In this document: one piece after another, positions 7,524-61,434 of the stretch
Position numbering within the stretch: the first letter of the stretch is position 1
Layout: each line of letters opens with the position of its first letter
NCBI RefSeq assembly: GCF_036971445.1
Contig: NC_091470.1
Span: forward strand, 181,970,001 to 182,034,000
From: Narcine bancroftii
Taxonomy: Eukaryota
Direction: 5' to 3'
DNA: 64,000 nt
The notes under the pieces: model-generated
Databases searched by the model: none
Told to the model about the DNA's origin: nothing
What the model saw: the letters and a program-made list of their open reading frames with translations, nothing else
Translations under genes and position numbers: made by a program

Positions 7524-7767
7524 CTGGGAAATAAATGGAAATAAAATTTGCACCTCGGTGTGAGATCCAGTTAAACGGGGCAAAGGGTCTCTCCCTGGAG
7601 CGTCAACGGTTTCCCCCCTTCAACGAGAGCTGAGCGCTTCCCAACACTTCCGACTTTCAGCCAGGATACAAATCTCAGCAATGCAGCTGGGGAATTTACT
7701 TTCAACCAACTTAAATGTTGTGTGAAGATGAATATTTTTCCTACAATACAATACCCATGACGGATTA

Positions 7768-9330
7768 TGTTATATTTTATATTGTACATAGATATGTTTT
7801 AACAATGGCAATGGCATTCTCCATTAACAATGGCGTGAAGCAAGGCTGTGTTCTCGCACCAACCCTCTTTTCAATCTTCTTCAGCATGATGCTGAACCAA
7901 GCCATGAAAGACCCCAACAATGAAGACGCTGTTTACATTCGGTACCGCACGGATGGCAGTCTCTTCAATCTGAGGCGCCTGCAAGCTCACACCAAGACAC
8001 AAGAGAAATTTGTCCGTGAACTACTCTTTGCAGATGATGCCGCTTTAGTTGCCCATTCAGAGCCAGCTCTTCAGCGTTTGACGTCCTGCTTTGCGGAAAC
8101 TGCCAAAATGTTTGGCCTGGAAGTCAGCCTGAAGAAAACTGAGGTCCTCCATCAGCCAGCTCCCCACCATGACTACCAGCCCCCCCACATCTCCATCGGG
8201 CACACAAAACTCAAAACGGTCAACCAGTTTACCTATCTCGGCTGCACCATTTCATCAGATGCAAGGATCGACAATGAGATAGACAACAGACTCGCCAAGG
8301 CAAATAGCGCCTTTGGAAGACTACACAAAAGAGTCTGGAAAAACAACCAACTGAAAAACCTCACAAAGATAAGCGTATACAGAGCCGTTGTCATACCCAC
8401 ACTCCTGTTTGGCTCCGAATCATGGGTCCTCTACCGGCACCACCTACGGCTCCTAGAACGCTTCCACCAGCGTTGTCTCCGCTCCATCCTCAACATCCAT
8501 TGGAGCGCTAACACCCCTAACGTCGAGGTACTCGAGATGGCAGAGGTCGACAGCATCGAGTCCACGCTGCTGAAGATCCAGCTGCGCTGGATGGGTCACG
8601 TCTCCAGAATGGAGGACCATCGCCTTCCCAAGATCGTATTATATGGCGAGCTCTCCACTGGCCACCGTGACAGAGGTGCACCAAAGAAAAGGTACAAGGA
8701 CTGCCTAAAGAAATCTCTTGGTGCCTGCCACATTGACCACTGCCAGTGGGCTGATAACGCCTCAAACCGTGCATCTTGGCGCCTCACAGTTTGGCGGGCA
8801 GCAGCCTCCTTTGAAGAAGACCGCAGAGCCCACCTCACTGACAAAAGGCAAAGGAGGAAAAACCCAACACCCAACCCCAACCAACCAATTTTCCCTTGCA
8901 ACCGCTGCAATCGTGTCTGCCTGTCCCGCATCGGACTGGTCAGCCACAAACGAGCCTGCAGCTGACGTGGACTTTTTTACACCCTCCATAAATCTTCGTC
9001 CGCGAAGCCAAGCCAAAGAAGAAGAGATATGTTTTAAAGGAGATAAATTGTGACAGGCTTTTTAGTGTAGGACACATACAACACTTCAAAACAGATCTCA
9101 TTTAAAATGCCAGAGCTCTGCTCAAGCCAGACAGTCCAGGCTCTGGTTGCCTTTGCAAAAACTTTATAGAATGCCTACAAGGACTTCACAAGTAGGTGTT
9201 AATTGGACGTGCTATGGAGTAAGGGATTATTGTTTTGGAAAGCAACAGACGAACTCGGAAGATTGGGTCCGGAGCCGCAGTCTGTCTGAGTGCAGTTGGC
9301 AGTTCTTAGAGGATCGTGTGGTTTTCTCTG

Positions 9331-22993: not shown

Positions 22994-23500
22994 CTAACGC
23001 GTTTTGCCTGCCCGGCGTTGCCGCCCCATGGCTCTAGAGGCAGAGACTCTCTTGGGCGCCGTGCGCTTGCGGGGGCTCTTGGCCGCCGGCTTCCTCACCC
23101 GCTTCTGGGCGGCCGCTTTGGCTCCTGACGCCGTCCTCTTCCTGGCGGGCGCCTTCCTCGTTGCCCCTCTTCCGCCCCGGACCTTGGCTTCTCCCTGCTC
23201 GCCCTCCGCCACCCCCGGCTCGGCGCGCAGAGCGGTAGTTCCCGTCTCATAGGCGGCCGCCGAGGCTACTTTCTTCGCCGCGGCGGCGCCCGCCCTGGGG
23301 ACCTGGCGCTCCTTGGCGGCGGCCACCGCCTCTAGGATGTGCTCGGCGACGGCAGCCGGTGCGCCTTTTTGCCGATGGGCCGCCTTCTTCTTGGCGGCGG
23401 CCAAGACAGCGGAGGAGGCAGGGGCGGCAGGGACCCCGGAGAAATCGGGACCAGCAGCACCGGTGGGAGCGTCCGCTTCAGCGGGAACAGTCTCGGCCAT
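22994..23500 (-). CDS. H1-like gene A, 168 aa, incomplete globular domain
   Basis: MAETVPA N-terminus, VAEHILEAVAAAKER (H1 helix 1), K/R/A/P tail with KSPRK; intronless, CpG-rich; histone stem-loop 27 nt past the stop. Confidence 0.8.
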   Translation of the reverse strand: MAETVPAEADAPTGAAGPDFSGVPAAPASSAVLAAAKKKAAHRQKGAPAAVAEHILEAVAAAKERQVPRAGAAAAKKVASAAAYETGTTALRAEPGVAEGEQGEAKVRGGRGATRKAPARKRTASGAKAAAQKRVRKPAAKSPRKRTAPKRVSASRAMGRQRRAGKTR

Positions 23501-25161
23501 CAACCCCTCAGAGTCGACGCTCACCGCGCCAAGTGGCGGCGCTGACGCCCAGTCCGACCTATTATGAGGGGAAGGCGGACGGGGTGGAGCCGATGCGCTC
23601 GGCTCCGCCTCTATCCGCTGCCCCAATCACACCTAGCCCCGCCTACCAGTCCTTCCCTCGCCTGCCGCCCCACAGCCTCCCCGCCCGAAGCATCGCCGCC
23701 TCCTCAAACGTGATCCCATCACCAGCCACATCTTCCCTTCTCCGACCGCGTCTTTCTCGTCCACTCCTCCCTCCTTACCAATCGCCCCCTTGGCACCTCC
23801 CCCTGCGGGAGATGCTGCCCTTGGGTCCACATCCCCTTCCCTCACCACCACTATGGGCCCCAAACGCTCCTTCTAAGTGAAGCAACACTTCACTTGTGTA
23901 CTCGTGGGAGGCTAGAAAGGCCGTTCGGCCCTTCTAATCTGTGCTGGCCAATAAAACAAGCTAGTCCCACTGAACTACTCTCTTATCCATGCATTTATTC
24001 AATTTATTTACCTACTGCTCTGGCCTCTTCTACAACATAGAGACTGGCCACGGTCTGGGAGCTCGTTACGCTGAGTCTCTTCAGTCCATCCGCATGACCT
24101 CCCAGTGGCCAAACATTTCAATACTGCGTCCCTCTCCCGCGCCGACGTATCTGTCAAACCAGGGCTACCTGTAAATTTGATATGAGGAGCAACCCCTCAT
24201 ATCCCGTCCGAGCGCTCTCCAACCGGATAGTTTTAACTACGAATTCTCCGGTTTCTGCTAGCCCACTCCCCGTTCTCCTTCTCTTCCCCGTCCCTCTGTC
24301 TTATTTCCTTCCAGCTCTCCACCCACTTCCCTCTGCATTCACAGAGCCATCCCCTCTTCCCCGTTTATATGCGCTCCCTCCCTTCTCCACATATTACCTC
24401 CTGCTTGTGGGCGCGTCCTCCTCCCCCTGTCCCTCCATTTCATTTGCATATCTGCCTACCATACCCTGATGAGGCTTAAGACCAAAAAGGTTGGTTGTCT
24501 TTGCTATGTTAAACGTTGGTTAAATCCTTGCTGTTTGACCTGATGACTTTCTCCAGTTCAGTGTTTTACTGGGGGTGGGTTGTGGGGAGAGTTCGGGGAA
24601 CTAACATCATTACGGCCCGAAAAGCTGCAAACTAATCTGATGGATCAGCAAGTTGGGGGTTGGTTCACGCACCGTCGCGGCGGGTTGATCGAAGGAGCCG
24701 GACGCAGATCGGAAGGAGCGGATAGGAGAGAATAAAGAACCGTAAACAGATAACAAATGTAAACAGACTCTGCAATACAGACAGAACAAAGAAAATCAAT
24801 AAAGTGCACAAGTCCTTATATGAGTCCGAGTTTGGTTTTGAGTGGGGTGGTAGCTGTGTCCTGAACCTGGTGATGCAAGTCTTGCGGGACGCTACCTCTT
24901 TCCTGATGGTAGAAGCAAGAACAGATTCATCTTAAGAATCGTTTTGATAATGATTGGATTGATAAAAGGTTTTGGGTTTAATATGGTAAGAACAGAGCAT
25001 ATGCTGGGTGGCGTGGGTCCTCGATGATCGCTACTGCTCTCCGACGGCTGCATTCCCCGCAGATGGGAGGGTTTTACCTGCAATCCATCCCTTAAAAATC
25101 ATTTTGTAAATTGAACACAGTACAAGTGGTTATTGCAATCTACTGCGTAAATATTGTTGGA

Positions 25162-35809: not shown

Positions 35810-35836
35810 ATTGTGCTGCGGGTTTGCGGAAGAAAC

Positions 35837-36246
<410 letters not shown>

Positions 36247-37299: not shown

Positions 37300-39858
37300 T
37301 CTTCTTTCTTTGGCTTGGCTTCGCGGATGAAGATTTATGGAGGGGGTAAATGTCCACGTCAGCTGCAGGCTCGTTTGTGGCTGACAAGTCCGATGCGGGA
37401 CAGGCAGACACGGTTGCAGCGGTTGCAGGGGAAAATTGGTTGGTTGGGGATGGGTGTTGGGTTTTTCCTCCTTTGCCTTTTGTCAGTGAGGTGGGCTCTG
37501 CGGTCTTCTTCAAAGGAGGTTGCTGCCCGCCAAACTGTGAGGCACCAAGATGCACGGTTTGAGGCGATATCAGCTCACTGGCGGTGGTCAATGTGGCAGG
37601 CACCAACAGATTTCTTTAGGCAGCCCTTGTACCTTTTCTTTGGGGCACCTCTGTCCTGGTGGCCAGTGGAGAGCTCGCCATATAACACGATCTTGGGAAG
37701 GCGATGGTCCTCCATTCTGGAGACGTGACCCACCCAGCGCAGCTGGATCATCAGCAGCGTGGACTCGATGCTGTCGACCTCTGCCATCTCGAGTACTTCG
37801 ACGTTAGGGATGAAAGCGCTCCAATGAATGTTGAGGATGGAGCAGAGACAACGCTGGTGGAAGCGTTCTAGGAGCCGTAGGTGATGCCGGTAGAGGACCC
37901 ATGATTCGGAGCCGAACAGGAGTGTGGGTATGACAACGGCTCTGTATACGCTTATCTTTGTGAGGTTTTTCAGTTGGTTGTTTTTCCAGACTCTTTTGTG
38001 TAGTCTTCCAAAGGCGCTATTTGCCTTGGCGAGTCTGTTGTCTATCTCGTTGTCGATCCTTGTATCTGATGAAATGGTGCAGCCGAGATAGGTAAACTGG
38101 TTGACCGTTTTGAGTTTTGTGTGCCCAATGGAGATGTGGGGGGGGGGCTGGTAGTCATGGTGGGGAGCTGGCTGATGGAGGACCTCAGTTTTCTTCAGGT
38201 TGACTTCCAGGCCAAACATTTTGGCAGTTTCCGCAAAACAGGACGTCAAGCGCTGAAGAGCTGGCTCTGAATGGGCAACTAAAGCGGCATCGTCTGCAAA
38301 GAGTAGTTCACGAACAAGTTTCTCTTGTGTTTTGGTGTGAGCTTGTAGGCGCCTCAGATTGAAGAGACTGCCATCCGTGCGGTACCGGATGTAAACAGCA
38401 TCTTCATTGTTGAGGTCTTTCATGGCTTGGTTCAGCATCATGCTGAAGAAGATTGAAAAGAGGGTTGGTGAGAGAACACAGCCTTGCTTCACGCCATTGT
38501 TAATGGAGAAGGGTTCAGAGAGCTCATTGCTGTATCTGACCCGACCTTGTTGGTTTTCCTGGTGCGAGAAAGTGACAAACGAGATGTGCTCCACACCAGG
38601 GTCATGCCCAGCGCGGAATGCCACACTGACCACCGGCTGGTTCGCTGCAAGCTCAACCTTCACTTCAAGCCAAAGCCCAGGAACAGTAAAGCCCCCAGAA
38701 AGAGGTTCAATGTTGGAAACCTGCAGTCAGACGAAGCGAGAGGAAACTTCCAGGCAAACCTCAAAGCAAAGCTTGACGATGCAATCCGCCTCACGGACCC
38801 GTCCCCTGAAACCCTCTGGGATCAGTTGAAGACTACCATCCTGCAATCCACTGAAGAGGTACTGGGCTTCTCCTCCAGGAAAAACAAGGACTGGTTCGAA
38901 GAAAACAGCCAGGAAATCCAGGAGCTGCTGGCAAAGAAGCGAGCTGCCCACCAGGCTCACCTTACAAAGCCGTCCTGTCCAGAGAAGAAACAAGCCTTCC
39001 GTCGCGCATGCAGCCATCTTCAGCGCAAACTCTGGGAGATCCAAAATGAGTGGTGGACTAGCCTCGCCAAGCGAACCCAGCTCAGCGCGGACATTGGCGA
39101 CTTCAGGGGTTTCTACGAGGCTCTAAAGGCTGTGTACGCCCCCTCACCCCAAGTCCAAAGCCCGCTGCACAGCTCAGACGGCAAAGTCCTCCTCAGTGAC
39201 AAGATCTCCATCCTCAACCGATGGTCAGAACACTTCCAATCTCTTTTCAGTGCCAACCGCTCAGTCCAAGATTCCGCCCTGCTCCAGCTCCCTCAACAGC
39301 CCCTAAGGCTAGAGCTGGATGAGGTCCTCACCCAGGATGAGACATATAAGGCAATCGAACAACTGAAAAGTGGCAAAGCAGCAGGTATGGATGGAATCCC
39401 CCCCAGAGGTCTGGAAGGCTGGCGGCAAAACTCTGCATGTCAAACTGCATGAGTTTTTCAAGCTTTGTTGGGACCAAGGAAAACTGCCTCAGGACCTTCG
39501 TGATGCCACCATCATCACCCTGTACAAAAACAAAGGTGAGAAATCAGACTGGGGAATCACGCTGCTCTCCATTGCAGGCAAAATCTTCGCTAGGATTCTC
39601 CTAAATAGAATAATACCTAGTGTCGCCGAGAATATTCTCCCAGAATCACAGTGCGGCTTTCGCTCAGAGGAACTACTGACATGGTCTTTGCCCTCAGACA
39701 GCTCCAAGAAAAGTGCAGAGAACAAAACAAAGGACTCTACATCACCTTTGTTGACCTCACCAAAGCCTTCGACACCGTGAGCAGGAAAGGGCTTTGGCAA
39801 ATACTAGAGCGCATCGGATGCCCCCCAAAGTTCCTCAACATGATTATCCAACTGCACG
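37300..39858 (-). mobile_element. RTE LINE with inverted 5' segment
   Basis: RT 3' part on minus (37300-38558); APE end/linker/RT start on plus (38557-39858); TSD CGTCCTTTACTAT at 37287-37299 and 39857-39869. Confidence 0.93.
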
Positions 39859-41155: not shown

Positions 41156-41171
41156 GGCTCTGAAAAGAGCC
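41156..41171 (-). terminator. Orphan histone stem-loop
   Basis: ccaaaGGCTCTTTTCAGAGCC, identical core to genes A-C; no histone ORF upstream. Confidence 0.85.
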
Positions 41172-44487: not shown

Positions 44488-46603
44488 CCTGTCGGCTGAA
44501 CCTGACTTACAATTTGGACAAGTGTGTCTTCCGGACCACACGACTCGCGATTCTAGGTTGCGTGGTGGAGAACGGGATAGTCATGCCAGATCCTGACCGC
44601 ATGCGTCCCCTAATGGACGCTCCCCCCACCCCATACCCAGAAAGCGCTCAAATGCTCCCTGGGGCCTTTTCTCATATTACGCCAAATGGGTTCCACACTA
44701 TGCCGACAAGGCACGTCATCTTATCAAGACCACCTCCTTTCCCCTCTCGACCGAAGCCAGAGCGGCTTTCAATCGAATCAAATCCGACATCGCCACTGCG
44801 ATGCTGCACACGATCAACGAGTCTGTCCCGTTTCAAGTCAAGAGCGATGCATCCGACTTCGCCCTGGCAGCCACCTTGAACCAGGCTGGTCGGCCTGTAG
44901 CCTTCTTCTCCAAAACCCTCCAGGGTCCAGAGAGTAGACACTCCTCAATCGAGAAGGAGGCCCAGGCCATAGTTGAAGTGGTGCGTCGTTGGAGACATTA
45001 CCTCACTGGGAGGCGCTTTACACTGTTGACTGATCAACGCGCAGTCTCCTTCGTGTTCAGCAACACCCAGCGTGGTAAGATAAAAAATGACAAAATCGCC
45101 AGATGGAGAATCAAACTCTCCACCTTTAACTATGACACCCTTTACCGGCCTGGTAAGCTCAACAACCCGCCTGACGCGCTCTCCAGGGGGACGTGCGCCA
45201 GCGTACAGATGGACAGACTACAGAAACTCCATGAGGCGCTCTGTCATCCAGGGGTCTCTAGGTTTGCCCACTTTGTGAAGGCACGCAACCTACCCTACAC
45301 AGTCGAGGAGATCCGCTCCATGACCCGAGCCTGTTCGGTGTGCGCTGAATGCAAGCCCCACTTCTTCCGTCCAGATAACTCCCATGTTATCAAATCCACC
45401 CGCCCCTTCAAGCGTCTTAGCGTAGACCTTAAGGGGCCCCTACCGTTGACCAACCGTAATAACTACATCCTTACGGCCATCGACAAGTACTCCCGCTTCC
45501 CGTTCACTGTGCCCTGCCCAGACACCACTGCCACTTCAGTGATACAGTATTTTCGCCATTTTCGGGTACCCCAATTCCATCCACAGTGATAGGGAGTCCT
45601 CATTCATGAGCGCAGAGCTGCAACAGTACCTTCTGGAGTGTGGTATTGCTTCAAGCAGGACCACCAGCTATAACCCATGTGGTAACGGCCGGGTCGAAAG
45701 GGAGAATGCCACCATATGGAGAGCGGTTACACTGGCTCTCCGGTCTAAAGGTCTCCCCACCTCTCACTGGCAGGAGGTTCTCACTAGTGCCTTACACTCC
45801 ATCCGCTCCCTCCTATGTACCACAACAAATGCCACCCCCTACGAAAGGATGTTCCTTTTCCCGAGGAAATCCGAATCAGGAACCACTGTACCGGCATGGC
45901 TCACCGTCCCTGGCCCCGTCCTTTTGTGACGCCATGTCCGGCACTCAAAGAACGACCCCTTGGTCGACCGAGTGACTCTACTCCACGCGAACCTGCATTA
46001 CGCCTACGTTGAGTTCCCAGACGGGTGGGAGGACACTGTTTCGGTGCGGGACCTAGCTCAGGACGCAGTAGACCCAGCAAACCCCCCAACCCAACCTTCC
46101 CCAACTCTTTATTCCCCAGGCCCCATGCCGCAACAGAAGGACCAACAGCACCCCAACGACCTGGGCCACCCTGCCGACAACACGACTGGGGAATTGAGCG
46201 AAGGAGCGGTCACACCCGACGAGCCTGCTGGCGACCCCAATCCCAGCACCATGGCGGTCACGCCAGATGGTCAGACCCCCTGACCGCTACAGTCCTTAAC
46301 CTACCCCTTCCTTTCATTCTCTCCCTCGTTTTTTTTTCCAGGGTCGTTCTCTAAGAAGGGGTGAATGTGATAGTACAGAGCTATCACCAATGTATATAGT
46401 GTATATAATTACAGATTCTAGACTGTGCTTACAGCGATTGGCTGAGAGCTAAGCCACGCATACTGTCTGGGCCTTAAAGGGTTGTGTCCCTAGCCAGGTC
46501 GGATCATTTCGGACTGGTCGGCCACCTGTGAAGAGCTCCTGTCTTTTGCTAATAAAAGCCTTGGTTTGGATTGACAAGTCTTTGATTCTTTCGACGAGCT
46601 CTA
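44488..46603 (+). mobile_element. 5'-truncated Ty3/Gypsy LTR retrotransposon (RT end, RNase H, integrase, PPT, 3' LTR 46366-46603)
   Basis: SDASDFALAATL, SSIEKEAQAIV, LLTDQRA, HHCC zinc finger, NGRVERENATI; frameshifts and stops; PPT aagaaggggtgaa before TGTGATAG. Confidence 0.92.
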
Positions 46604-48861: not shown

Positions 48862-49297
48862 TCAGCTTTAGATAGTTGAGGAGATATACAATGGGAGGGG
48901 GGGGGGGGGAAGGGGAGGAGGAATTTATTTGGACTTTAATGCAGCCAACCTAGTGTGTTAATGACAGCAGGGTTAGCAAGATCTTCTTCTGCTGCACATG
49001 ACATTAGGGCCCCGGATCCTTATGGAATATAAACCTCAACTCTTCCTCTGAACGCCCAAGGTTCAATATATGCCCATGGGTCGAATTCGTCCAATGTTCC
49101 AACCGCGTAAACAGGGCGGGCGTTCCCTTCGGGGCGCCAAGGGCGACCTAATGTGGAGCCGGAAAGGCTGGCAGGGCTTGGCTGCGCCCCGAACCGCCGC
49201 TCGGGCGAGGCGTGGCGGCTGGCGGGAACAGGGCGGCAGGCGGGAACGGGCGGGCGCTCGCTCTTTCCTGCGCTCCCAGCTCGGTTTTGGGCCAGGA

Positions 49298-49350
49298 GAA
49301 AGCACAAACCCGGGTTGGGTGACTCTACCACGTCCGCGCCGCCACTATAA
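49298..49350 (+). promoter_or_regulatory. Promoter of H1-like gene D
   Basis: Variant H1 box AAGCACA (49300-49306) and TATAA at 49346-49350. Confidence 0.7.
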
Positions 49351-49414
49351 CCGCGGCCGCGGCGTCGCCGCCGGCATCATGGTGGCCCCCTGTAGTTGCG
49401 ACGAGCGGGAGCGG

Positions 49415-49999
49415 ATGGCAGAGACGGGCGCGGAGGTAACGACGGCGGCGGCCGCTTCCCCGCCGGCGGACGAGAAGAAGAAACGGCGGCCGTTTCGCCA
49501 CAAGAAGCTGGGTGGAGGTATGGCCGAGCAGATCATGAAGGCGGTGGCCTTGACCAAAGAGCGACGGGGTCTGTCGGTGGCTGCCATGAAGAAGATCCTG
49601 ACGGCCAGCGGTTACAACCTGGAGCGCCGCAACTCGCGCGTCAACCGCGCCGTGCGCACCCTGGTGAGCCGCGGCTCACTGGTGCAGACGGCCGGCTGCG
49701 GCGCCTCGGGCTCGGTCAGGCTCGGCGGCGGCCCCCTGGTGGAGCCGGCCGTGCGCCGGCGGCGAGCCCGGCGGCTGACGGCTCCGAGGAAGAGGAGGAG
49801 GACGAAGGGGCGCAGCCGGCGGAAGAAGGCGGGCACCTCGAGGAAGGCGGCCAGGCGCTGGCAAGGCAGCCGGGCGCGGCGAGCCGCGGGCCGGCGCCGC
49901 CCCGTGAAAGGTGTCGAGGAGGAGACGAAGGCGGCCTCGGACAGCGAGAAGCCGGCAAACTTGGAGCAGCAGGGAACTGCCGAGCTCGACAAGGGCTAA
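49415..49999 (+). CDS. H1-like gene D, 194 aa, protamine-like Arg-rich tail plus acidic C-terminus
   Basis: MAETGAE start; winged helix MAEQIMKAVALTKERRGLSVAAMKKILTASGYNL...LVSRGSLVQTAGCGASGSVRL; tail RRRRARRLTAPRKRRRTKGRSRRKK; hand count about 34 R and 18 K; in-frame upstream ATG at 49379 lies near the expected TSS. Confidence 0.93.
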   Translation: MAETGAEVTTAAAASPPADEKKKRRPFRHKKLGGGMAEQIMKAVALTKERRGLSVAAMKKILTASGYNLERRNSRVNRAVRTLVSRGSLVQTAGCGASGSVRLGGGPLVEPAVRRRRARRLTAPRKRRRTKGRSRRKKAGTSRKAARRWQGSRARRAAGRRRPVKGVEEETKAASDSEKPANLEQQGTAELDKG

Positions 50000-50076
50000 A
50001 CCACTTATACGATGTTAACTTAAAATGTAGCAAATTTAAAATGTAGCGAACTTGTGTCCTAAATGATTCTTGATGT

Positions 50077-50082
50077 AATAAA
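50077..50082 (+). terminator. Poly(A) signal of gene D
   Basis: AATAAA 77 nt after the stop; no histone stem-loop seen downstream. Confidence 0.7.
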
Positions 50083-53064
50083 GAATGAAATGAACGAGTC
50101 ATTTTAATCTAAAATTACCTAAGGGAATGCTGATCGAGTTGGAGGTTACAGAAATATTCAGGTTTATTGTACAAAAACCGAACCAAAAGTCCGCACCACA
50201 AAACTACTTAAATGGAGAGCAGGCGTGTGTGTTCACTTTTATTTACATTTATTTATATATTTTATTTTATATATCTATATATATATATATCTAAATATCC
50301 ATTCACACCGCTGGGAGCGAGGAAGAGCTCAACTGGGGGGGGGGGGAATCCTGCCATTATCTCCCCCCCCCCCCCAAAACAAACGGGTGCTTTGTCCCTC
50401 CACTCTGGTCCAGTTCTTGAGCTGTGGGACCCGCACGAACCCGGATCACACCGTGTGCGGTTAGGATTTCAACAAGCCTGGGGGGGGGGGGGGGGGGGAA
50501 GAGTCAGAATTAGAAGTCATCCTCAGCGTCGCTGCAAACATTTCTATGGACCACGTGTCAAAATAAATAAGATACAAGAAGTCTTCGTGGGCGCGGAACA
50601 GTTCGCGCGACGCCGTGGCGGCGCCAGCAACCGGGGTTCGAATCCCGCAATTTCCCCGGGGGCTCCGGTTTCCTCCCGCCCTTCAAAGCGTATTGGGGGG
50701 TTGGGGGTTGTTGGACAAATGAGGCTGTAAATTTGGCGCCACGGACTCGTGGGCCAAAAGGGCCCTGTCCCCGCGCTACGTCTCTAACTTTCTTCTCGGA
50801 AATCTGCTGACGCTGTTGGCACCGACATTGCTCGGCAGGTCACTGAGGGTTCTTTATGCGGCAACAGAGGTCAGGTTTGAGCCCTTCATCGTTAAAAACA
50901 CAGGGAGGAGGCCGGCCGGGGGGTGGGGGCATGGGTTCCAAGGGCAAAAGTTATCGTAAGGTGGATATGGGTGGGAGGAGGGAAGAAAAATGGCTGGGAA
51001 TTGATAGGGGAAGGGCCAACTCTCTGAATGGAGAGAGAGGGAATGGGGCAGAGAGAGGGGGAGGGGGAGAGGGAAGGGGAGGGGAGGGGGTGAGGGAGGG
51101 GGAGAGGGAAGGGGAGGGGAGGGGGTGAGAGAGGGGGAGGGGATTTCTCTCTGTAGCCAAACATTTCAAATTTAAGCCCCATTTCTGTGCCATCATATCT
51201 CTCTGCAGCCCTCGTGCTCTCCCGTATATTGGAGGAGCAACACCTGGCCCCTCTCCAACCGGATGGAATTAACATCGACTCCTCTGGTTTCTGCTAGATA
51301 GATTTTCATCTCCTACGTCAGAGAGAATGGACTCAGACTGGGAGATGGTTTGATTGAGCACACGACCAAAATGGGGACCTCCCAGTGGCCATCTCGATTC
51401 CACACCCCATTCTTATGCCGACATTGTTTGTCCATTCAACCCGAGGCACCCTGGCAAATTTCAACAGGTGTGGTGGAAAGTGCATCACGGCCTGTTCGAA
51501 GGAGACCAATATCCCTGAGCGAAAAGCCCTCCAAAAGGAAGAGGACACAGCCCAGGACATTACAGCCCAGGACATTACAGATCCTTCCCCTCCCCACTAC
51601 TGAGCACATCTACGGGGAACGCCGCCGTCGGAGAGCAGCAGCGATCGTCAAGGATCCCCACCACCCGGCACACGCTCTGTTCTTGCTTCTGCCAACAAGA
51701 AAGAAGTGTCGGGGCCACAAGACTCGCACCCACCAGGTTCAGGAACAACGGCTCCCCCTCCACCATCAGAGTCCTCAACGACAAACTAAATCAGGGACTC
51801 ATTTAAGGACTCTGACTTGTGCATTTTATTGATTTTATTTGCTCTCCCTGTATTGCACAGTCAGTTTGTTTACATTCGTTCCCTGTTTACAGTTCTGTAT
51901 TTGTTACGTTTACTCTGTGAACAGTTTAGTTTTTGCAATACTCATTAGTGGTAATTCAGCCGGGCCCGCGGGAAAAAGGAATCTCAGGTTTGTATGTGAT
52001 GTCATGTACGTCCTGGGACAATAAATCTGAAATCTGAACCACTCCTAATATTCCATCTGGTCACTCTCCAACCAGATGGCATTAACATCAATTTCTCCCG
52101 TTTCTGGGTGACCCTTCCCCTCCTCACTCTCTTCCCCTGCCCCCCGTCTCCTTTCCGCCAGCTCCCCGACCTTTCCCTCTCCGCTCAGCGAGCTACCTGC
52201 TCCCCCCTCACCTCAGCTCTTTTCTCTCCTTGCCGTCCCATCAGTAACTCGCCCTGCGTACCCCGCGGCGGATCGTGACACTTGATTGTCTAACCGTCGT
52301 TCGGACTCTCGCTTTGCCCCTCTCTGAGTGGGGTATAAATAACAACATCTGTACTGAACCGTTGGAATTATTAAACTTAATGTTTGTACCAAATTGTTAG
52401 ACAATTAAACTCAGTGTTTGTATAACTCACCAATGACTACAACATAATATTGGTCTTTTTTTTAGACATACAGCACATTTCGGCCCACGGGTCCATGCCG
52501 CCCAATTTGCACCCCATGACCCTACAACCCTCCCTTTTCATTCAGAGAGCCTGCCTTCTTTCTGAGCGCACCTTCAGGCCCGAAACGCTGGTTGCCCATG
52601 AACGCCTTGTGGCCTGCTGAGTTTAGTGGACATTCATTGGACCTCATTCATTTGATGTCGTCTGATGTGCTGACAACTACTATTGGCGATAATTTCACTC
52701 TGTAACTATCAGAGGAGAGGAATGGCCATAATGCATATAATTATATTTTGAGGGAGCCGCACGTTTAATCACATTTGAACATCCGCGGATGATTAACCTT
52801 CGTGATGCGCCACCAATTACTCGAAAGACTGTGGTTGAGAAACCAATAGGCCTTTATTCACAAGATCAATGGCACATCCATGCTGTTCGATTGCCCTGCA
52901 CTGAAGAAGGGGCTGTGGAACAGTCACCTTTATACGGGAGCCTGCGGGGGTGGGCACAGATACAGCTGGCCATTAGATGTGCCCGACCGGACAATTCCAT
53001 GCAACCGTAGTTTATCACACTTTGAAACCCTTAAGCATGTAACATTTTCTGCCAACCAGCTTTT

Positions 53065-55119: not shown

Positions 55120-56601
55120 ATGGGAGGATCAAAATCTAAGGGCTCGTCTGAAAATTCAGGACAATTCCCGGGAGTTCCCCTTGACAGCCCTTTGGGGAGA
55201 ATGTTTGAAAATTGGGATAGTAAAAGATATCGAGACAAAAACAAGAAAAAGATGGTCCAATATTGTCTCCTTTGGTCGAAACAACCTATTAAAGGTTCCT
55301 CGGTCTGGTGGCCGAAATTTGGATCTGATGAGGATTGGGTTAGACAAGCATTAAACATATATGTAAATTCGAGACCAAAGGTGAATCAAGAAGAGTCAGC
55401 ATATGCATTTTGTTGGGTTCCCTGGCCAGGATCCTTAACAAAATGTTTTAAATTGAGGGTAGCGGGAGAAAAGAAGTGGGAACCTCTGGACAACCTTCCC
55501 CCTCCTTATATTCCCCCGGTGCCTACTGCGCCCGAGGAAAGCTCATTACCGGAGGGGAAAGGTGATGAATCTGATTGCCCCGAAAGGGGCCGGGAAAAAA
55601 AGAATGAATTAAGGGAGTCGGACCCTAAACTTCCACCGGTAAACTGACCCTGGACAAGATCCCAGACTGGTCCAGGACCATCAAAGTTTTCAGTAAGCCT
55701 AAATCCCCTGAGGGAAGTTCCTATGGGAGGACCGGGAGGGGGAACGGGATATGTGAATGTTCCCCTAACTAGTACAGAGGTGCGGGGATTTAAGAAAGAA
55801 ATGAAAAAGTTATTGGAAGATCCTATAGGACTGGCCGAACAGCTCGACCAATTCCTGGGACCAAACACATATACGTGGGAAGAGATGCAGGCAATAATGG
55901 GAACATTATTCTCACCCCAGGAGAGGCAGATGATTCGACGGGCTGCCCTCCTCATGTGGGAATATGAACAACCTGGGGACCCCAGACCCCATGAACAAAA
56001 ATATCCCTTAAATGAACCCAGGTGGGACAAACGAACACCCGAGGGATTGGCAAGTATGAGACAATATAGAGAGTGGACAATTAAAGGGATACGGGAGGCT
56101 GTGCCAAAGAGTCACAATTTCACCAAGGCATTTGGGAACCACCAGGGGAAAGACGAGTCCCCTACTGATTTCTTGGAGAGGGTGAGAAAGAATGTCCAAC
56201 AGTATGCGGGCGTGGACCCTAGTACACCAATGGGTGAACAGCTTATTCGAATTGAATTTGTTTCCAAATCATGGCAGGACATTAGAAAGAAACTAGAAAA
56301 GGAGGAGGACTGGAGCGAAAAACCCCTAAGCGACCTGTTAAAAAGGCGCAAAAAGTATATGTGCAGAGAGAAGAAGAAGATCAAAAGAGGGCGACAAAGG
56401 TTATGGTACAGACTATCCAACAGATGAATGCCGAATCCAGAGGGGAAAGAAAACAAAACCTTCCTCTAAACATATCCAAGAGAGGGAAGACCCCGGAGGT
56501 TCGTTAAGTGCTATTACTGCAATGAGGAAGGACACTTTAAGAGGGAATGCCCCCGATACAAGAGGGAATTGCGTGCCCTCGAACTTATGGAAGAAGATTA
56601 G
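55120..56601 (+). pseudogene. gag: ERV gag (disrupted)
   Basis: MGGSKSK myristoylation-type start, PPPY and PTAP late motifs, MHR QGKDESPTDFLERV, CCHC knuckle CYYCNEEGHFKREC; in-frame TGA at 55645 and frameshifts at about 56340 and 56450-56500. Confidence 0.92.
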
Positions 56602-59600
56602 GGGGGTCAGAGGTTCCAAATGTTGGGGACCAAGTATAAGAGGGAACCCCTGGTAAAACTAAAAATTGGTCCCAAGGGAGAAGAGGTGGTGTTTATGGTG
56701 GACACAGGAGCGGAACGAAGTAGTGTAATAACTGTGCCAATCGGGACTGAACCTGTAAAAAGTAATTTAAAAATTTCTGGGATAGAAGGGGCTCCCAGAA
56801 TGGTATCAATAATTCCCCAAGTAACAGTGAAACTGGAAGAAAGAGAAGGGGTACAAGACCTCTTGTTGTTACCGTCGGCTGGATTTAACCTCCTAGGAAG
56901 GGACTTACAGGCTCTCCTAGGTTTGGGTGCTCTCCCTGTGGACGGAGAAGTGCGAGTCCACCTCTGTGCTCTAAAGGAAGAGGATGAACGGCAGATTGAC
57001 GAGAGAGTCTGGTATAGGGAGGGAAATCGAGGAGGTCTGGACATCCCACCTTTACATGTCACATTAATACCAGGTCATCAGCCGGTAAGGAAACGTCAGT
57101 ATCCTATTTCTTTGGAAGGGAGAAAAGGGCTGCAGCCGGTAATTGAGACTATAATACGAGACGGACTATTAGAAGAATGCATGTCACCTTATAACACCCC
57201 TATACTCCCAGTAAAAAAGTCAGATGGATCCTATCGCCTAGTTCAGGATCTAAGAAGTTTGAATGCTATTGTTCAGACCCGCCACCCAGTGGTGCCTAAT
57301 CCCTATACTATTATGAGTCGGATTCCCCCAGACCATGAGTGGTTTAGTGTTATCGACTTGAAGGATGCCTTCTGGACGTGTCCATTAGAAGAGGAAAGTA
57401 GAGATATGTTCGCGTTTGAATGGGAAAATCCATGGACAGGTAGACGGAGACAGCTTCGGTGGACTGTATTGCCCCAAGGGTTCACTGAATCTCCGAACCT
57501 GTTTGGACAAATGCTAGAACAAATCCTGGCGGACTATCCACAATCTGATGATTCCCAACTAATGCAGTATGTGGACGATTTACTATTATCAGGACCCAAG
57601 GAACAAGAAATGAGGGGAGATACAATTAGACTCTTGAATTATCTGGGGAAAAAGGGTCTACGGGTGTCCAGGAACAAGTTACAGTTCGTTGAGAGAACTG
57701 TGGTATATCTGGGACACCAGATAAGTAAAGGACAGAAATGGATTATCCCTGAACGGATTGCGGGAATCACTAGAATGCCGTTATCCCGTAATAAGAAGGA
57801 AATAAGACAATTCCTGGGACTCTTAGGTTACTGTAGGTTATGGATAAAGGACTACTCAGCGTTGGTGAAGTTTATGTATGAAAAGCTGACAAATGAAAAT
57901 GAATATCCATTGAAATGGACCCAGGAGGAGGAGGGATGGTTTGAGGACTTGAAGCATCGCCTGACACGAGCCCCGGTACTCACTCTGCCCTCTTTAAAAC
58001 AGCCCTTCCAGCTATTTGTCACTCATAACCAAGGAACAGCTGTGGGAGTTTTAACACAGGAAAAAGGCGGTCAGCGACACCCAGTGGCTTTCCTTTCCAA
58101 AATGATGGACCCAGTGTCTCGTGGATGGTCGACGTGTATCCAGGGAGTAGCGGCTGCTGCTCTGTTGGTAGAGGAAGCACGTAAACTTACTTTTGGAGGA
58201 AAGATGACTGTGTACACCTCCCATTCTGTGAGTGTTTTATTAATACAAACTGCCCATCGATGGCTGACTGATTCTCGCATATTAAAGTATGAAACCATTT
58301 TAATGGTCGGAGAAGATCTACAGTTTGCAAAGATTAATAGCTGCAACCCAGCTCAGTTTTTATACGGCAGTGAAACAGAGAGAGAGGTGGAGCACGACTG
58401 TGTCGAGTTGATGGATCTTCAGACCAAGACCCGAGAAGACCTTTGCGATACTCCTCTGGGAGAAGGATATGAATTCTACATTGACGGCTCCGCCAGATGT
58501 GTTGAAGGAATGAGAAGAAGTGGGTATGCTATAATAGAAGGAAATACTTGGAAAGTAGTAGAATCCACGAGACTACCCGGAAGCTGGTCAGCACAGTCCT
58601 GTGAACTATATGCCTTGCAGAGAGCCCTCAGAATACTGGCAGAGAAAACTGGAACGATTTACACTGATTCCAAATACGCATACGGGGTAGTGCATACCTT
58701 TGGTAAGATCTGGAAGGAGCGTGGTCTAATTACATCAAGAGGAAAGGAATTGGCACACGAACAGATGATTACTCTGACTTTAGAAGCCTTGACATTACCC
58801 CAGGAAATAGCAGTGGTCTACATACCAGGCCATCAGAGGGGAGATACCCCGACAGCAATTGGAAACAGACTGGCTGATGAAGAAGCCAAAAGGGCAGCCA
58901 TGCAACAAGAAGTCCGTTTGCTGACCTTAATCCCAATAAGACAAGGCATAAAGAAGGCTCCCATTTTCACTGATAAGGAAGAAAAGGACATGGCTCAGCT
59001 GGGCGCAAGCCAGCTGCCTGATGGAACATGGAAGACACCAGATGGAAGAATGGTTCTAAATAAAGAAATAACTCGCAATATTTTAAAACACCTGCATTAT
59101 CAGAGCCACTGGGGCACCCAAGCCTTATGTGACACAGTGCTTCGAGAATATGTGTGTAAGGGAATCTACACCTTGGCCCAACAGGAGGTGCAGAACTGTC
59201 ACCTATGCACAAAAATTAATAAGAATATAATGAGGACAGGGACCATGGGAGGTCAACCATTAGCCATACGCCCTTTTCAAAGTATCCAGATCGACTTCAC
59301 AGAGTTACCTCAAGTCCAAAGATGGAAGTATCTGTTGGTGGTAATAGATCACTTTACCCGATGGGTGGAAGCCTTCCCAACAGTAAATGCTACAGCCTCT
59401 ACAGTAGCTCGCCTCCTCCTAGAGCAGATAATCCCCAGATATGGTATAATGGATTCTATAGACTCAGACAGGGGTCCACATTTTTGTTCAAAAATCCAGC
59501 AATTGATTTGTAATGCATTACAGGTCTCTTGGAAATTGCATACCCCTTGGTATCCACAAAGCTCAGGGAGGGTTGAACGTATGAATGGAACCCTAAAAAT

Positions 59601-60165
59601 GCAATTGACAAAAATAATGGTGGAAACTAAAATGCCTTGGATAAAGTGTCTGCCCCTGGCTTTATTAAGAATTCGTACTGCCCCACGAAAAGATGTAGGG
59701 TTGTCCCCTTATGAAATGATGTTTGGGCTTCCCTTCTGGAGTACAGTTGAGGGGTGTCCCACCTTGGGGGAAGGGGATATATTTGTTAGGAACTATTTAC
59801 AGGCACTGTCACGCTCTCTTACAGATTTACGAAAGAGAGGACTATTGGCACAAACACCGCCTCTAGACTTTTCTTTGCACAAAGTGGAACCAGGAGACTG
59901 GATTCTCATCAAGACCTGGAAAACTGAAAAACTCCAGCCCCAGTGGGAAGGTCCATACCAAGTTCTCTTAACTACAGAGGCTGCAGCACGAACAAGAGAG
60001 AAGGGGTGGACGCACACATCCAGATTTAAGGGACCTGTAGAGGCGCCTCAGGACCCTGATACGAACTCAGATTGGACGTGTTCCTGGAGAAAAACCTCTT
60101 ACCTTGCGATTTCGCAGAAAGACTTGATTCACAATGTTATTGTTATGTTCTTTGATTTTTCTTAG
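56602..60165 (+). CDS. pol: ERV pro-pol (PR, RT, RNase H, IN), open except for a probable frameshift near 60080
   Basis: DTGA protease, LPQGF and YVDD RT, YIDGS RNase H, HHCC and DDE integrase, GPY motif; in frame with the gag TAG. Confidence 0.96.
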   Translation, partial: GGQRFQMLGTKYKREPLVKLKIGPKGEEVVFMVDTGAERSSVITVPIGTEPVKSNLKISGIEGAPRMVSIIPQVTVKLEEREGVQDLLLLPSAGFNLLGRDLQALLGLGALPVDGEVRVHLCALKEEDERQIDERVWYREGNRGGLDIPPLHVTLIPGHQPVRKRQYPISLEGRKGLQPVIETIIRDGLLEECMSPYNTPILPVKKSDGSYRLVQDLRSLNAIVQTRHPVVPNPYTIMSRIPPDHEWFSVIDLKDAFWTCPLEEESRDMFAFEWENPWTGRRRQLRWTVLPQGFTESPNLFGQMLEQILADYPQSDDSQLMQYVDDLLLSGPKEQEMRGDTIRLLNYLGKKGLRVSRNKLQFVERTVVYLGHQISKGQKWIIPERIAGITRMPLSRNKKEIRQFLGLLGYCRLWIKDYSALVKFMYEKLTNENEYPLKWTQEEEGWFEDLKHRLTRAPVLTLPSLKQPFQLFVTHNQGTAVGVLTQEKGGQRHPVAFLSKMMDPVSRGWSTCIQGVAAAALLVEEARKLTFGGKMTVYTSHSVSVLLIQTAHRWLTDSRILKYETILMVGEDLQFAKINSCNPAQFLYGSETEREVEHDCVELMDLQTKTREDLCDTPLGEGYEFYIDGSARCVEGMRRSGYAIIEGNTWKVVESTRLPGSWSAQSCELYALQRALRILAEKTGTIYTDSKYAYGVVHTFGKIWKERGLITSRGKELAHEQMITLTLEALTLPQEIAVVYIPGHQRGDTPTAIGNRLADEEAKRAAMQQEVRLLTLIPIRQGIKKAPIFTDKEEKDMAQLGASQLPDGTWKTPDGRMVLNKEITRNILKHLHYQSHWGTQALCDTVLREYVCKGIYTLAQQEVQNCHLCTKINKNIMRTGTMGGQPLAIRPFQSIQIDFTELPQVQRWKYLLVVIDHFTRWVEAFPTVNATASTVARLLLEQIIPRYGIMDSIDSDRGPHFCSKIQQLICNALQVSWKLHTPWYPQSSGRVERMNGTLKMQLTKIMVETKMPWIKCLPLALLRIRTAPRKDVGLSPYEMMFGLPFWSTVEGCPTLGEGDIFVRNYLQALSRSLTDLRKRGLLAQTPPLDFSLHKVEPGDWILIKTWKTEKLQPQWEGPYQVLLTTEAAARTREKGWTHTSRFKGPVEAPQDPDTNSDWTCSWRKTSYLAISQKDLIHNVIVMFFDFS

Positions 60166-61434
60166 TTTGCCTATGTCTTTATCAGGTGTGAAAGGTAAGA
60201 AATGCAAAGACACAGTGGTCCTGTTTCAGGAGGGTAATTTTATTTCCCATACCTCAGTTCCTGAGAAATGCTGAGCAGAAAATACCACCCAACATCCATA
60301 TACCCCTTGTGTGGAAAAAGAAGGAAATAATATGGGTCATTATATACAGATTCCTAATACCACTCCTTTCCCTCTTAACGGTTGGAAGGGTGACTCAGGC
60401 CCACCATGCCCTGATGGACTCTGGTTTTGCATACACCAGCGTACTGTTCCAATAAGAAGTTCCACTCCACACTCAAAAGTGCCTGCCCCTTTAAGACAGC
60501 CGGACTTAGTTCGAGTCCATCCAAATAACCATGAAAGTTTCGGTCACGCAGTTGGGGGAGATAACCTTTTTGTTGATCTTGCAACTAGAATTGCAGGAAC
60601 TTTTAATGTAACCAATTGTTGGGTCTGCGGGGGTCCACGGATGTCAGAGCAATGGCCTTGGTGGGGGGAGTCCCTCAATTCATTGACCATGATTTCCCGA
60701 ATTTGGACAACTAACCGAACGAGATCAAGAGAAACTTGGTCTCTCTCCAACGTCCCCTCTGGTTTTTATTGTCTCTCACGAACCGGCAAATACCCAGTAG
60801 GAAAAAGTCCCTGCAAGGCTGTATGGATTCGCATTTCGCCTAGTATTTTCACTTGGTTTCCTAAACCCCTGACTTGGTTCTTATCCACTGTTTTTAAAAC
60901 TAATTGCCTGCCCCTGTCTAATAGCAGTATTCAGCTTTGGAATTGTACCAGTTCCACCATCACAGGACCATACCAATCAAACCCCACTCTTAAAAGAGTT
61001 TGGGAACGGGGATATGGAGTATCCCCAAATGGATTATTCTGGATATGTGGTAATAAAGCTTATACTCGTCTCCCCTTACAGTGGAGTGGAACTTGTTTCC
61101 TAGGAATAATCTGCCCAGAATTTTTCCTCCTACCCCACGATCACGGTCATAAATTAGGAGTGAAAATTTTTGATACATTACACCGTCAGCCCCGCTCTAG
61201 TACGGTACATTTTGGACAATGGGGAGATGATTGGCCTCCAGAACGCATAATTCAATATTATGGTCCCGCTACATGGGGGTCATCGGAGGTATTTTATTCC
61301 TCCTACTTGTTTTGCCCTGTATTATTCCCTGTCTACGCAGCCTGGTGATTTCCATGGTCCAACAGGCTATGCAACCAGGGGGACTGGGAGACCCCGTTAG
61401 AATTTTACTTCAGCACGAGATTAATTTATCATGA
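60134..61434 (+). pseudogene. env: ERV env, ERV3-like, with a premature stop and a TM-ectodomain deletion
   Basis: Signal peptide MLLLCSLIFLSLPMSLSG; TGA at 60272; CWVC motif; RQPR furin-like site; WPPERIIQYYGPATW; then a jump to the membrane anchor GVIGGILFLLLVLPCIIPCL in another frame. Confidence 0.9.

Follow-up and report, generated by a model that had tools for sequence, protein, structure and literature searches.

Sequences exist for sperm and spermatid proteins of dogfish. Among these, the protamines (scylliorhinines Z1-Z3 and S4) and the spermatid proteins S1/S2 are Arg-rich basic nuclear proteins of elasmobranch spermiogenesis, which are short and have no winged helix. Arg-rich basicity is common to these proteins and the product of the gene described here, gene D in a 64,000-nucleotide stretch of the Narcine bancroftii genome (the window), but only gene D encodes a winged helix. 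Mammalian H1t (H1.6) is a germ-line H1 from the replication-dependent lineage, which keeps a stem-loop, K69, K85 and the S/TPxK motif (these and the other DNA-binding residues are numbered as in H1.0). Gene D is like H1t in its apparent lineage and in its Arg-shifted tail sequence, but it has retained neither K69 and K85 nor S/TPxK, and the two were not grouped together in our trees.

Protamine-like (PL) proteins are defined in PMC13148410 by a winged helix and an Arg/Lys stretch of 30–50 aa in the disordered C-terminal half, and the idea that protamines originated from H1 traces them to the H5/H1.0 line (PMC4584325, PMC11607694, PMC13148410). As these are described in PMC4584325, PMC13251019 and PMC13148410, gene D shares with Mullus surmuletus PL-I, the PLs of molluscs and tunicates and the germ-line H1s of Marchantia a winged helix followed by an Arg/Lys stretch, together with a fast-evolving C-terminal half. 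M. surmuletus PL-I is listed as poly(A)+ (PMC4584325) and gene D likewise has a candidate poly(A)-type 3' end. However, the PLs are described as coming from a replication-independent line, whereas gene D is closer to replication-dependent H1. Unlike the PLs, it continues past the basic stretch into a non-basic tail and retains the hairpin of the globular domain, which was reported to be dispensable in a fish PL-I (PMC4584325).

The mammalian spermatid histones H1T2/H1FNT (H1.7) and HILS1 (H1.9) are divergent H1s without S/TPxK, as is gene D, and they are described as acting uncut during histone replacement (PMC7788777, PMC6069787). H1T2 has a basic SR region in its extended C-terminus (PMC7788777). 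In their globular domains they have diverged much further than gene D, which has no SR repeats or Walker motif, and since neither protein was among the named matches of gene D, orthology is not suggested. Erythrocyte H5 resembles gene D in being intronless, poly(A)+ and Arg-enriched in its tail (PMC4584325), but H5/H1.0 represent a different lineage, whose matches to gene D (E 2e-5 or weaker) are far behind that of GH1 (4e-19).

Anatomy of Gene D

The first-pass annotation of the window had described gene D as a winged helix followed by a protamine-like Arg block of about 50 aa and a tail, and this anatomy was confirmed (Table 1). The intronless reading frame has a GC3 of 0.88 and a CpG observed/expected ratio of 1.09, and its product has a net charge of +36 with 26.8% K+R. 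Pfam Linker_histone (PF00538) matches aa 37–104 with 55.1 bits (cut-off 22.4), and a low-confidence structure model (mean pLDDT 55.6) places three helices at aa 36–85. The protein thus has the layout of a linker histone H1 (H15 domain), a winged helix between disordered tails.

Table 1. Features of gene D and its flanks (window positions).
Feature	Position	Strand	Remark
CGTCCGC promoter motif	49331..49337	+	also upstream of genes A, B and C
TATA-like box	49346..49350	+	3' of the ATG at 49070
In-frame upstream ATG	49379..49381	+	strong context, ~30 nt past the TATA-like box; would add 12 aa if used
Gene D reading frame	49415..49999	+	194 aa, without intron
Acidic N-terminal leader, aa 1–20	49415..49474	+	net -4
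Basic signature segment, aa 21–33	49475..49513	+	best conserved part of the orthogroup
Winged-helix globular domain, aa 34–104	49514..49726	+	Pfam, solved-structure matches, low-confidence model
Arg-rich block, aa 113–162, with Trp-containing basic motif near aa 148	49751..49900	+	
Non-basic C-terminal tail, aa 163–194	49901..49996	+	last 27 aa (aa 168–194, 49916–49996) net -5
AATAAA, candidate polyadenylation signal	50077..50082	+	78 nt past the stop; without histone stem-loop

With 22 Arg and 5 Lys, the block contains 27 K+R in 50 aa, which is the PL anatomy as given in PMC13148410 and agrees with the earlier protamine-like label. The chance of finding at least 22 Arg per 50 aa is 5e-10 at a background of 10%, and downstream of the globular domain as a whole gene D has 22 Arg against 9 Lys. 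A PVKGV spacer sits between the block and the last 27 aa, which contain 8 D/E and 3 K. The acidity of this segment is a modest excess over chance (P 0.01–0.04 at 12–15% D+E). The structure model contains a further low-confidence helix at aa 148–157 and gives the tail no structure, and an ESM Atlas search with aa 105–194 was uninformative, with a best score of 0.78.

Two origins of the C-terminal half were considered and rejected. A tail derived from a former 3' UTR by read-through is disfavoured by the lack of a decayed stem-loop in or after gene D and by the GC3 of the tail, which at 0.84 equals that of the remaining gene. A frameshift of a Lys-rich tail is the model proposed for the Arg block of tunicates; in gene D it is unsupported, as the other two frames of the block hold 1 and 0 Lys.

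Genomic Surroundings

Gene D is part of a divergent histone cluster of ~190 kb (G000:C5:181827297-182019999, of which positions 22994–49999 of the window form part). The cluster contains six H1-like genes, most of them Arg-shifted, as well as H4, H2A, a divergent H2B and an H3 pseudogene, and it flanks a class I tRNA synthetase gene with an EF1-gamma-like first domain, which we read as a valyl-tRNA-synthetase-like gene. As an intronless gene in a histone cluster, gene D conforms to canonical H1 genes. A scan of 384 kb around the window gave ten exact stem-loops; apart from one at 41171, they follow genes A, B and C, two further Arg-rich H1-like frames, H4, H2A, the divergent H2B and the H3 pseudogene, and gene D is the only H1-like gene of the cluster without one. 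Two further contigs carry the Lys-rich bulk H1 genes, and the two H1.0-type genes and the single H1x-type gene lie elsewhere in the genome, off the contig of the cluster. Within several other species, related Arg-rich H1s are on contigs of equal length.

Gene A (22994–23500, minus strand) has H1-like ends, the promoter motif and a stem-loop, with a truncated globular domain that gave no Pfam match. The H3 pseudogene (35836–36246, minus strand) is interrupted by a stop at codon 6 and by a frameshift but retains promoter elements and a stem-loop. A canonical stem-loop at ~41156–41171 (minus strand) has no histone reading frame in the preceding 900 nt. At G000:C5:181827297, a 205-aa Arg-rich frame with a stem-loop contains an apparent remnant of H1 helices 1–2, and it may represent a further stage on the way from H1 to a protamine. 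Searching the genome with the protamine family PF00260 gave no match; since controls equally gave none, this result is uninformative.

The remainder of the window contains mobile elements. An endogenous-retrovirus-like element, labelled from motifs, is presumably present at 55120–61348 (plus strand), where gag-like sequence extends over two frames, a frame of 1181 aa is pol-like and another is env-like. The pieces at 7715–8965, 37575–39780 and 44583–45929 we take to be LINE-like reverse-transcriptase fragments and an LTR-retrotransposon-like RNase H/integrase fragment.

Orthogroup and Ancestry

A search with the single sequence gave 13 matches, consisting of the database model of gene D itself, 11 chondrichthyan proteins and one weak teleost H1. 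A profile search against 1.84 billion representatives added Pristiophorus and Scyliorhinus torazame, and a profile search at E 1e-30 returned 14 proteins, all chondrichthyan and one per species, the model of gene D included. The orthogroup thus spans chimaeras to rays, with one intact copy in each of 14 species. In databases its members are named just 'histone H1-like' or similar, and we found no description of the orthogroup or the cluster in the open literature, most shark protamine work being in subscription journals.

Trees of the globular domain were calculated from all 174 rows (quick) and from 54 chosen rows (careful), the latter set being without gene B and without most of the unnamed Lys-rich H1s, and the two were in agreement. 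On 75–79 columns and with bootstrap values not fully settled, the orthogroup including Callorhinchus received 97/96 support and was nested in a clade of chondrichthyan Arg-rich H1s (98/94) that includes gene C, while H1.0 and H1x fell outside this clade on long branches. Among solved structures, gene D matched GH1 (E 3.6e-19) and H1.1–H1.4 (E 4e-19 to 3e-13), whereas matches to H1.0/H5 were much weaker (E 2e-5 or weaker). By sequence, gene D is therefore closer to replication-dependent H1 than to H1.0/H5, and in these short-column trees it does not show the descent from the replication-independent H5/H1.0 lineage that is part of the PL definition. We consequently call it PL-like rather than a PL, as it has the anatomy but not the descent.

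H1-like proteins of sturgeon and paddlefish (Acipenser, Polyodon) share the helix-3 signature of gene D. Their position next to the Arg-rich clade of chondrichthyans is weakly supported (82/74) and is possibly a hint of an older origin.

Conservation and the Globular Domain

Conservation is unevenly distributed over the protein. Mean pairwise identity among the 14 orthologues is 0.85 for aa 21–33 and 0.82 for helices 1–2, so that aa 21–66 are conserved at 82–85%, but it drops to 0.54 for helix 3 and the wing. The leader (0.48) and the Arg block (0.33) are lower still, and the tail (0.22) is the least conserved of all regions. Helix 3 and the wing are visibly eroded in several orthologues, whereas helices 1–2 are intact. 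With identities of 33% and 22%, the C-terminal half behaves like the C-terminal tails of PL proteins, which are described as fast-evolving (PMC13148410).

The DNA-binding residues of sites I and II were taken from PMC2685081. At the positions of K69 and K85, K or R occurs in 0/14 and 0/14 orthologues, against 98/125 and 111/125 of other H1s, while the position of R73 is basic in 13/14. The orthogroup therefore lacks the complete site I of canonical H1 (K69, R73, K85). R42, K52, R73 and R94 are largely kept among the orthologues and all kept in gene D, which also retains the GASGS hairpin. The loss of K85 does not single out gene D, because this residue is also missing in four of six ordinary Lys-rich chondrichthyan H1s and in all 25 Arg-rich paralogues. 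No S/TPxK motif is present in gene D, and it does not have the Lys-rich C-terminal domain with S/TPxK of canonical H1.

The bulk Lys-rich H1 genes of this genome (C9 ~208 Mb, C11 ~211 Mb) have unusually divergent globular domains, often without K85, and the globular domain of the Arg-rich variants is closer to the H1 of other vertebrates than theirs is.

The low identity of the tail could imply that gene D is a weakly constrained variant, or a germ-line H1 of another stage (H1t-like in spermatocytes, in the oocyte or in the early embryo), in which block and tail differ by drift. The segment DIAVAV, which most orthologues keep, was lost in gene D, and the cluster contains an H3 pseudogene and a degenerate H1, as would be expected under this explanation. 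However, one intact copy in 14 species including a chimaera, the strong conservation of aa 21–66 and the abundant contigs in one sequencing run (see below) all count against it, and we regard it as quite improbable.

Promoter, 3' End and Transcription

The motif CGTCCGC occurs ten times in the window against 2.4 expected, a number reached by 0/100 shuffles. It is found at 23575, 25755/25782, 30217 and 49331, upstream of genes A, B, C and D, respectively, and we assume that it resembles the HINFP / H4 site II element of replication-dependent histone promoters. Because its neighbours carry stem-loops and share this promoter motif, gene D appears to have originated in a replication-dependent cluster. 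The database model of 309 aa, starting at 49070, is probably over-extended, as the TATA-like box and the CGTCCGC motif lie downstream of that ATG; the orthologues align from the ATG at 49415.

Canonical replication-dependent H1 genes end in a stem-loop that replaces the poly(A) signal, and gene D departs from this. Genes A, B and C each have a canonical stem-loop 27–30 nt after the stop, whereas no exact histone stem-loop is present in the 400 nt 3' of gene D. Allowing two mismatches gave three matches against 7.5 expected in the surrounding 3.8 kb, with none up to 800 nt past the stop. Since the neighbours carry a stem-loop, its absence from gene D is a real contrast. The AATAAA without stem-loop reported in the first-pass annotation is indeed present, but taken alone it is weak evidence and not significant: AATAAA also appears in the first 100 nt in 19% of shuffles of the A+T-rich 3' flank.

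Three runs of one study, presumed to be RNA, contained 0.93, 0.19 and 0.14 of the query words. Contigs on 48950–50225 numbered 3988, 1 and 1 in these runs, counts that cannot show level, start or end of a transcript. In the first run the contigs densely cover the bins from 49380 to 50110, with transposase adapter ends present. The upstream flank is covered by just one contig of low depth, and stretches lacking contigs carry no weight as evidence. The densely covered span fits a transcript from just past the TATA-like box to just past AATAAA that is abundant in one sample alone. The uneven counts hint at abundance restricted to certain tissues, for which testis and blood would be equally good candidates.

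The same lopsided contig pattern would be expected from blood or blood-forming tissue if gene D were a somatic differentiation H1, derived from replication-dependent H1 and analogous to H5 in nucleated erythrocytes or other post-mitotic cells. That H5 itself is intronless, poly(A)+ and Arg-enriched (PMC4584325) agrees with such a role. On the other hand, H1.0-type genes (two) and an H1x-type gene are already present in the genome, H5 keeps K69 and K85 and gene D does not, and the erosion of helix 3 and wing together with fast tail evolution better fits reproductive proteins. It is therefore rather unlikely that gene D has this somatic function.

Arg Block, Tail and the Question of Cleavage

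The Arg block is conserved as composition only. The best 50-aa window contains 20–27 K+R, including 11–22 Arg, in 12/12 orthologues examined, and a Trp-containing basic motif is found in ten of the 14 aligned orthologues, while the block is mixed with Lys in several of them. By an alignment-free rule, a non-basic tail of at least 20 aa follows the last basic window in 12/14 orthologues and is short or missing in Heptranchias and Callorhinchus. Arg-rich shark and ray paralogues have such a tail in five of 15 examined (22–37 aa, net -2 to -6), and the same rule finds none in 14 of 15 Lys-rich H1s. To judge from this distribution, the non-basic tail is ancestral for the elasmobranch orthologues; that of gene D is identical to those of sawfish and skates at 10 of 32 positions, against 0–5 in sharks and the chimaera.

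Strong acidity is a different matter. The net charge of the tail is -4 or lower in two of the 14 orthologues (gene D and Chiloscyllium punctatum), -1 to -3 in nine and positive in three. The first-pass annotation had asked for block and tail to be conserved in related species, and the answer is split, because the non-basic tail is old but the clearly acidic tail is not: the composition of the block (12/12) and the presence of a non-basic tail (12/14) held up, and the acidity (2/14) did not. A conserved, strongly acidic segment that could neutralise the block was not found, and in gene D itself a tail of -5 stands against a block of +27. The earlier suggestion of a charge shield or pro-peptide, for a tail with 22% identity, is thus not supported; the tail is only mildly acidic and probably not a removable pro-peptide.

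These data bear on the possibility that gene D encodes a PL precursor, from which cleavage at either side of the Arg block would release a protamine-like peptide of ~50 aa in late spermatids, with the tail and N-leader discarded or damping DNA binding until then. Some PLs of molluscs, tunicates and liverworts are reported to be cleaved (PMC13148410, PMC13251019), and PMC11607694 provides further precedent for such precursors. Gene D has the PL anatomy with 44% Arg in its block, an acidic leader (net -3 to -11) is present in 13/13 full-length orthologues, and the occurrence of the tail in orthologues and some paralogues but hardly in Lys-rich H1s would agree with a precursor. However, the orthologue alignment contains no conserved motif at either edge of the block, and the mixing with Lys (down to 11 Arg per best 50 aa), the rarity of tails at -4 or lower and the lack of a tail in Callorhinchus also speak against it. 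A search for short proteins also came out blank: although dogfish proteins have been sequenced, no protein of 30–100 aa had words in common with the S. torazame orthologue in its C-terminal half, in an insensitive search with this one orthologue from a dogfish congener. Taken together, processing of gene D into a free peptide is possible but unlikely, and that part of the model in which the acidic tail acts as a shield is highly improbable, since its charge cannot neutralise the block.

Copies of the 5' Half in a Transposon-Like Element

Besides the gene itself, 39 further genomic DNA matches to the 5' half of gene D were found. Retrocopies (processed pseudogenes) would be a sign of a germ-line poly(A) mRNA, but this interpretation was rejected as all 19 copies examined sit inside an element with terminal inverted repeats. 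The dispersed matches therefore say nothing on expression. The element is 1.3–1.4 kb long, ~65–80% alike between copies and bounded by 16-bp imperfect terminal inverted repeats, with both ends found in nine of the 19 copies. The 8-bp flanks match at seven of eight positions in four of these nine (two of them near-identical loci) and at 0–5 in the others. In 19/19 copies the captured piece is closest to gene D among eight of the genome's H1 genes. Searching with a 500-bp part of the element that excludes the H1 piece yielded 144 candidates; 40 were scored, and all 40 matched. An example is G000:C5:153255679-153258880, one of at least 39 places genome-wide. The element is likely a non-autonomous DNA transposon with 8-bp target duplications, which we presume to be hAT-like, and it fits a multicopy hAT-like Pack-TIR carrying a 5' half derived from the gene D lineage. 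Multicopy Pack-TIRs are reported to be rare in animals, with only four cases among 100 genomes surveyed (PMC8277862).

Proposed Role and Implications

We propose that gene D encodes a protamine-like spermatid H1 that acts full length, a reading to which we assign a probability of roughly 0.55. The switch from a stem-loop to a poly(A)-type 3' end would free the gene from S phase and it would be made after meiosis. The conserved basic N-segment and helices 1–2 may load the protein onto DNA or a partner, while the weakened dyad-binding face would make it a loose nucleosome binder. In the uncut protein, the Arg block could then cross-link or bridge DNA during nucleosome loss. For the tail, we envisage a disordered and weakly acidic extension with Ser/Thr, which would adjust solubility or affinity rather than act as a stoichiometric shield.

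A more far-reaching scenario is that chondrichthyan PL-like proteins evolved independently from replication-dependent H1 in one ancient Arg-rich cluster, and that the product of the poly(A)-type gene D appears in spermatids and is trimmed at either end to yield a true protamine, with the acidic leader and tail restraining the core until cleavage. We consider this combination speculative and improbable.

Evidence for a transition from H1 to protamine comes so far mainly from invertebrates, a liverwort and one bony fish. What gene D adds is a single-copy, PL-shaped H1 that is present from chimaeras to rays and was apparently built from replication-dependent H1, with Arg-rich relatives in the cluster of its own genome that still carry stem-loops. 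If only the full-length protein exists, the gene D orthogroup would still represent an undescribed vertebrate germ-line H1 family.
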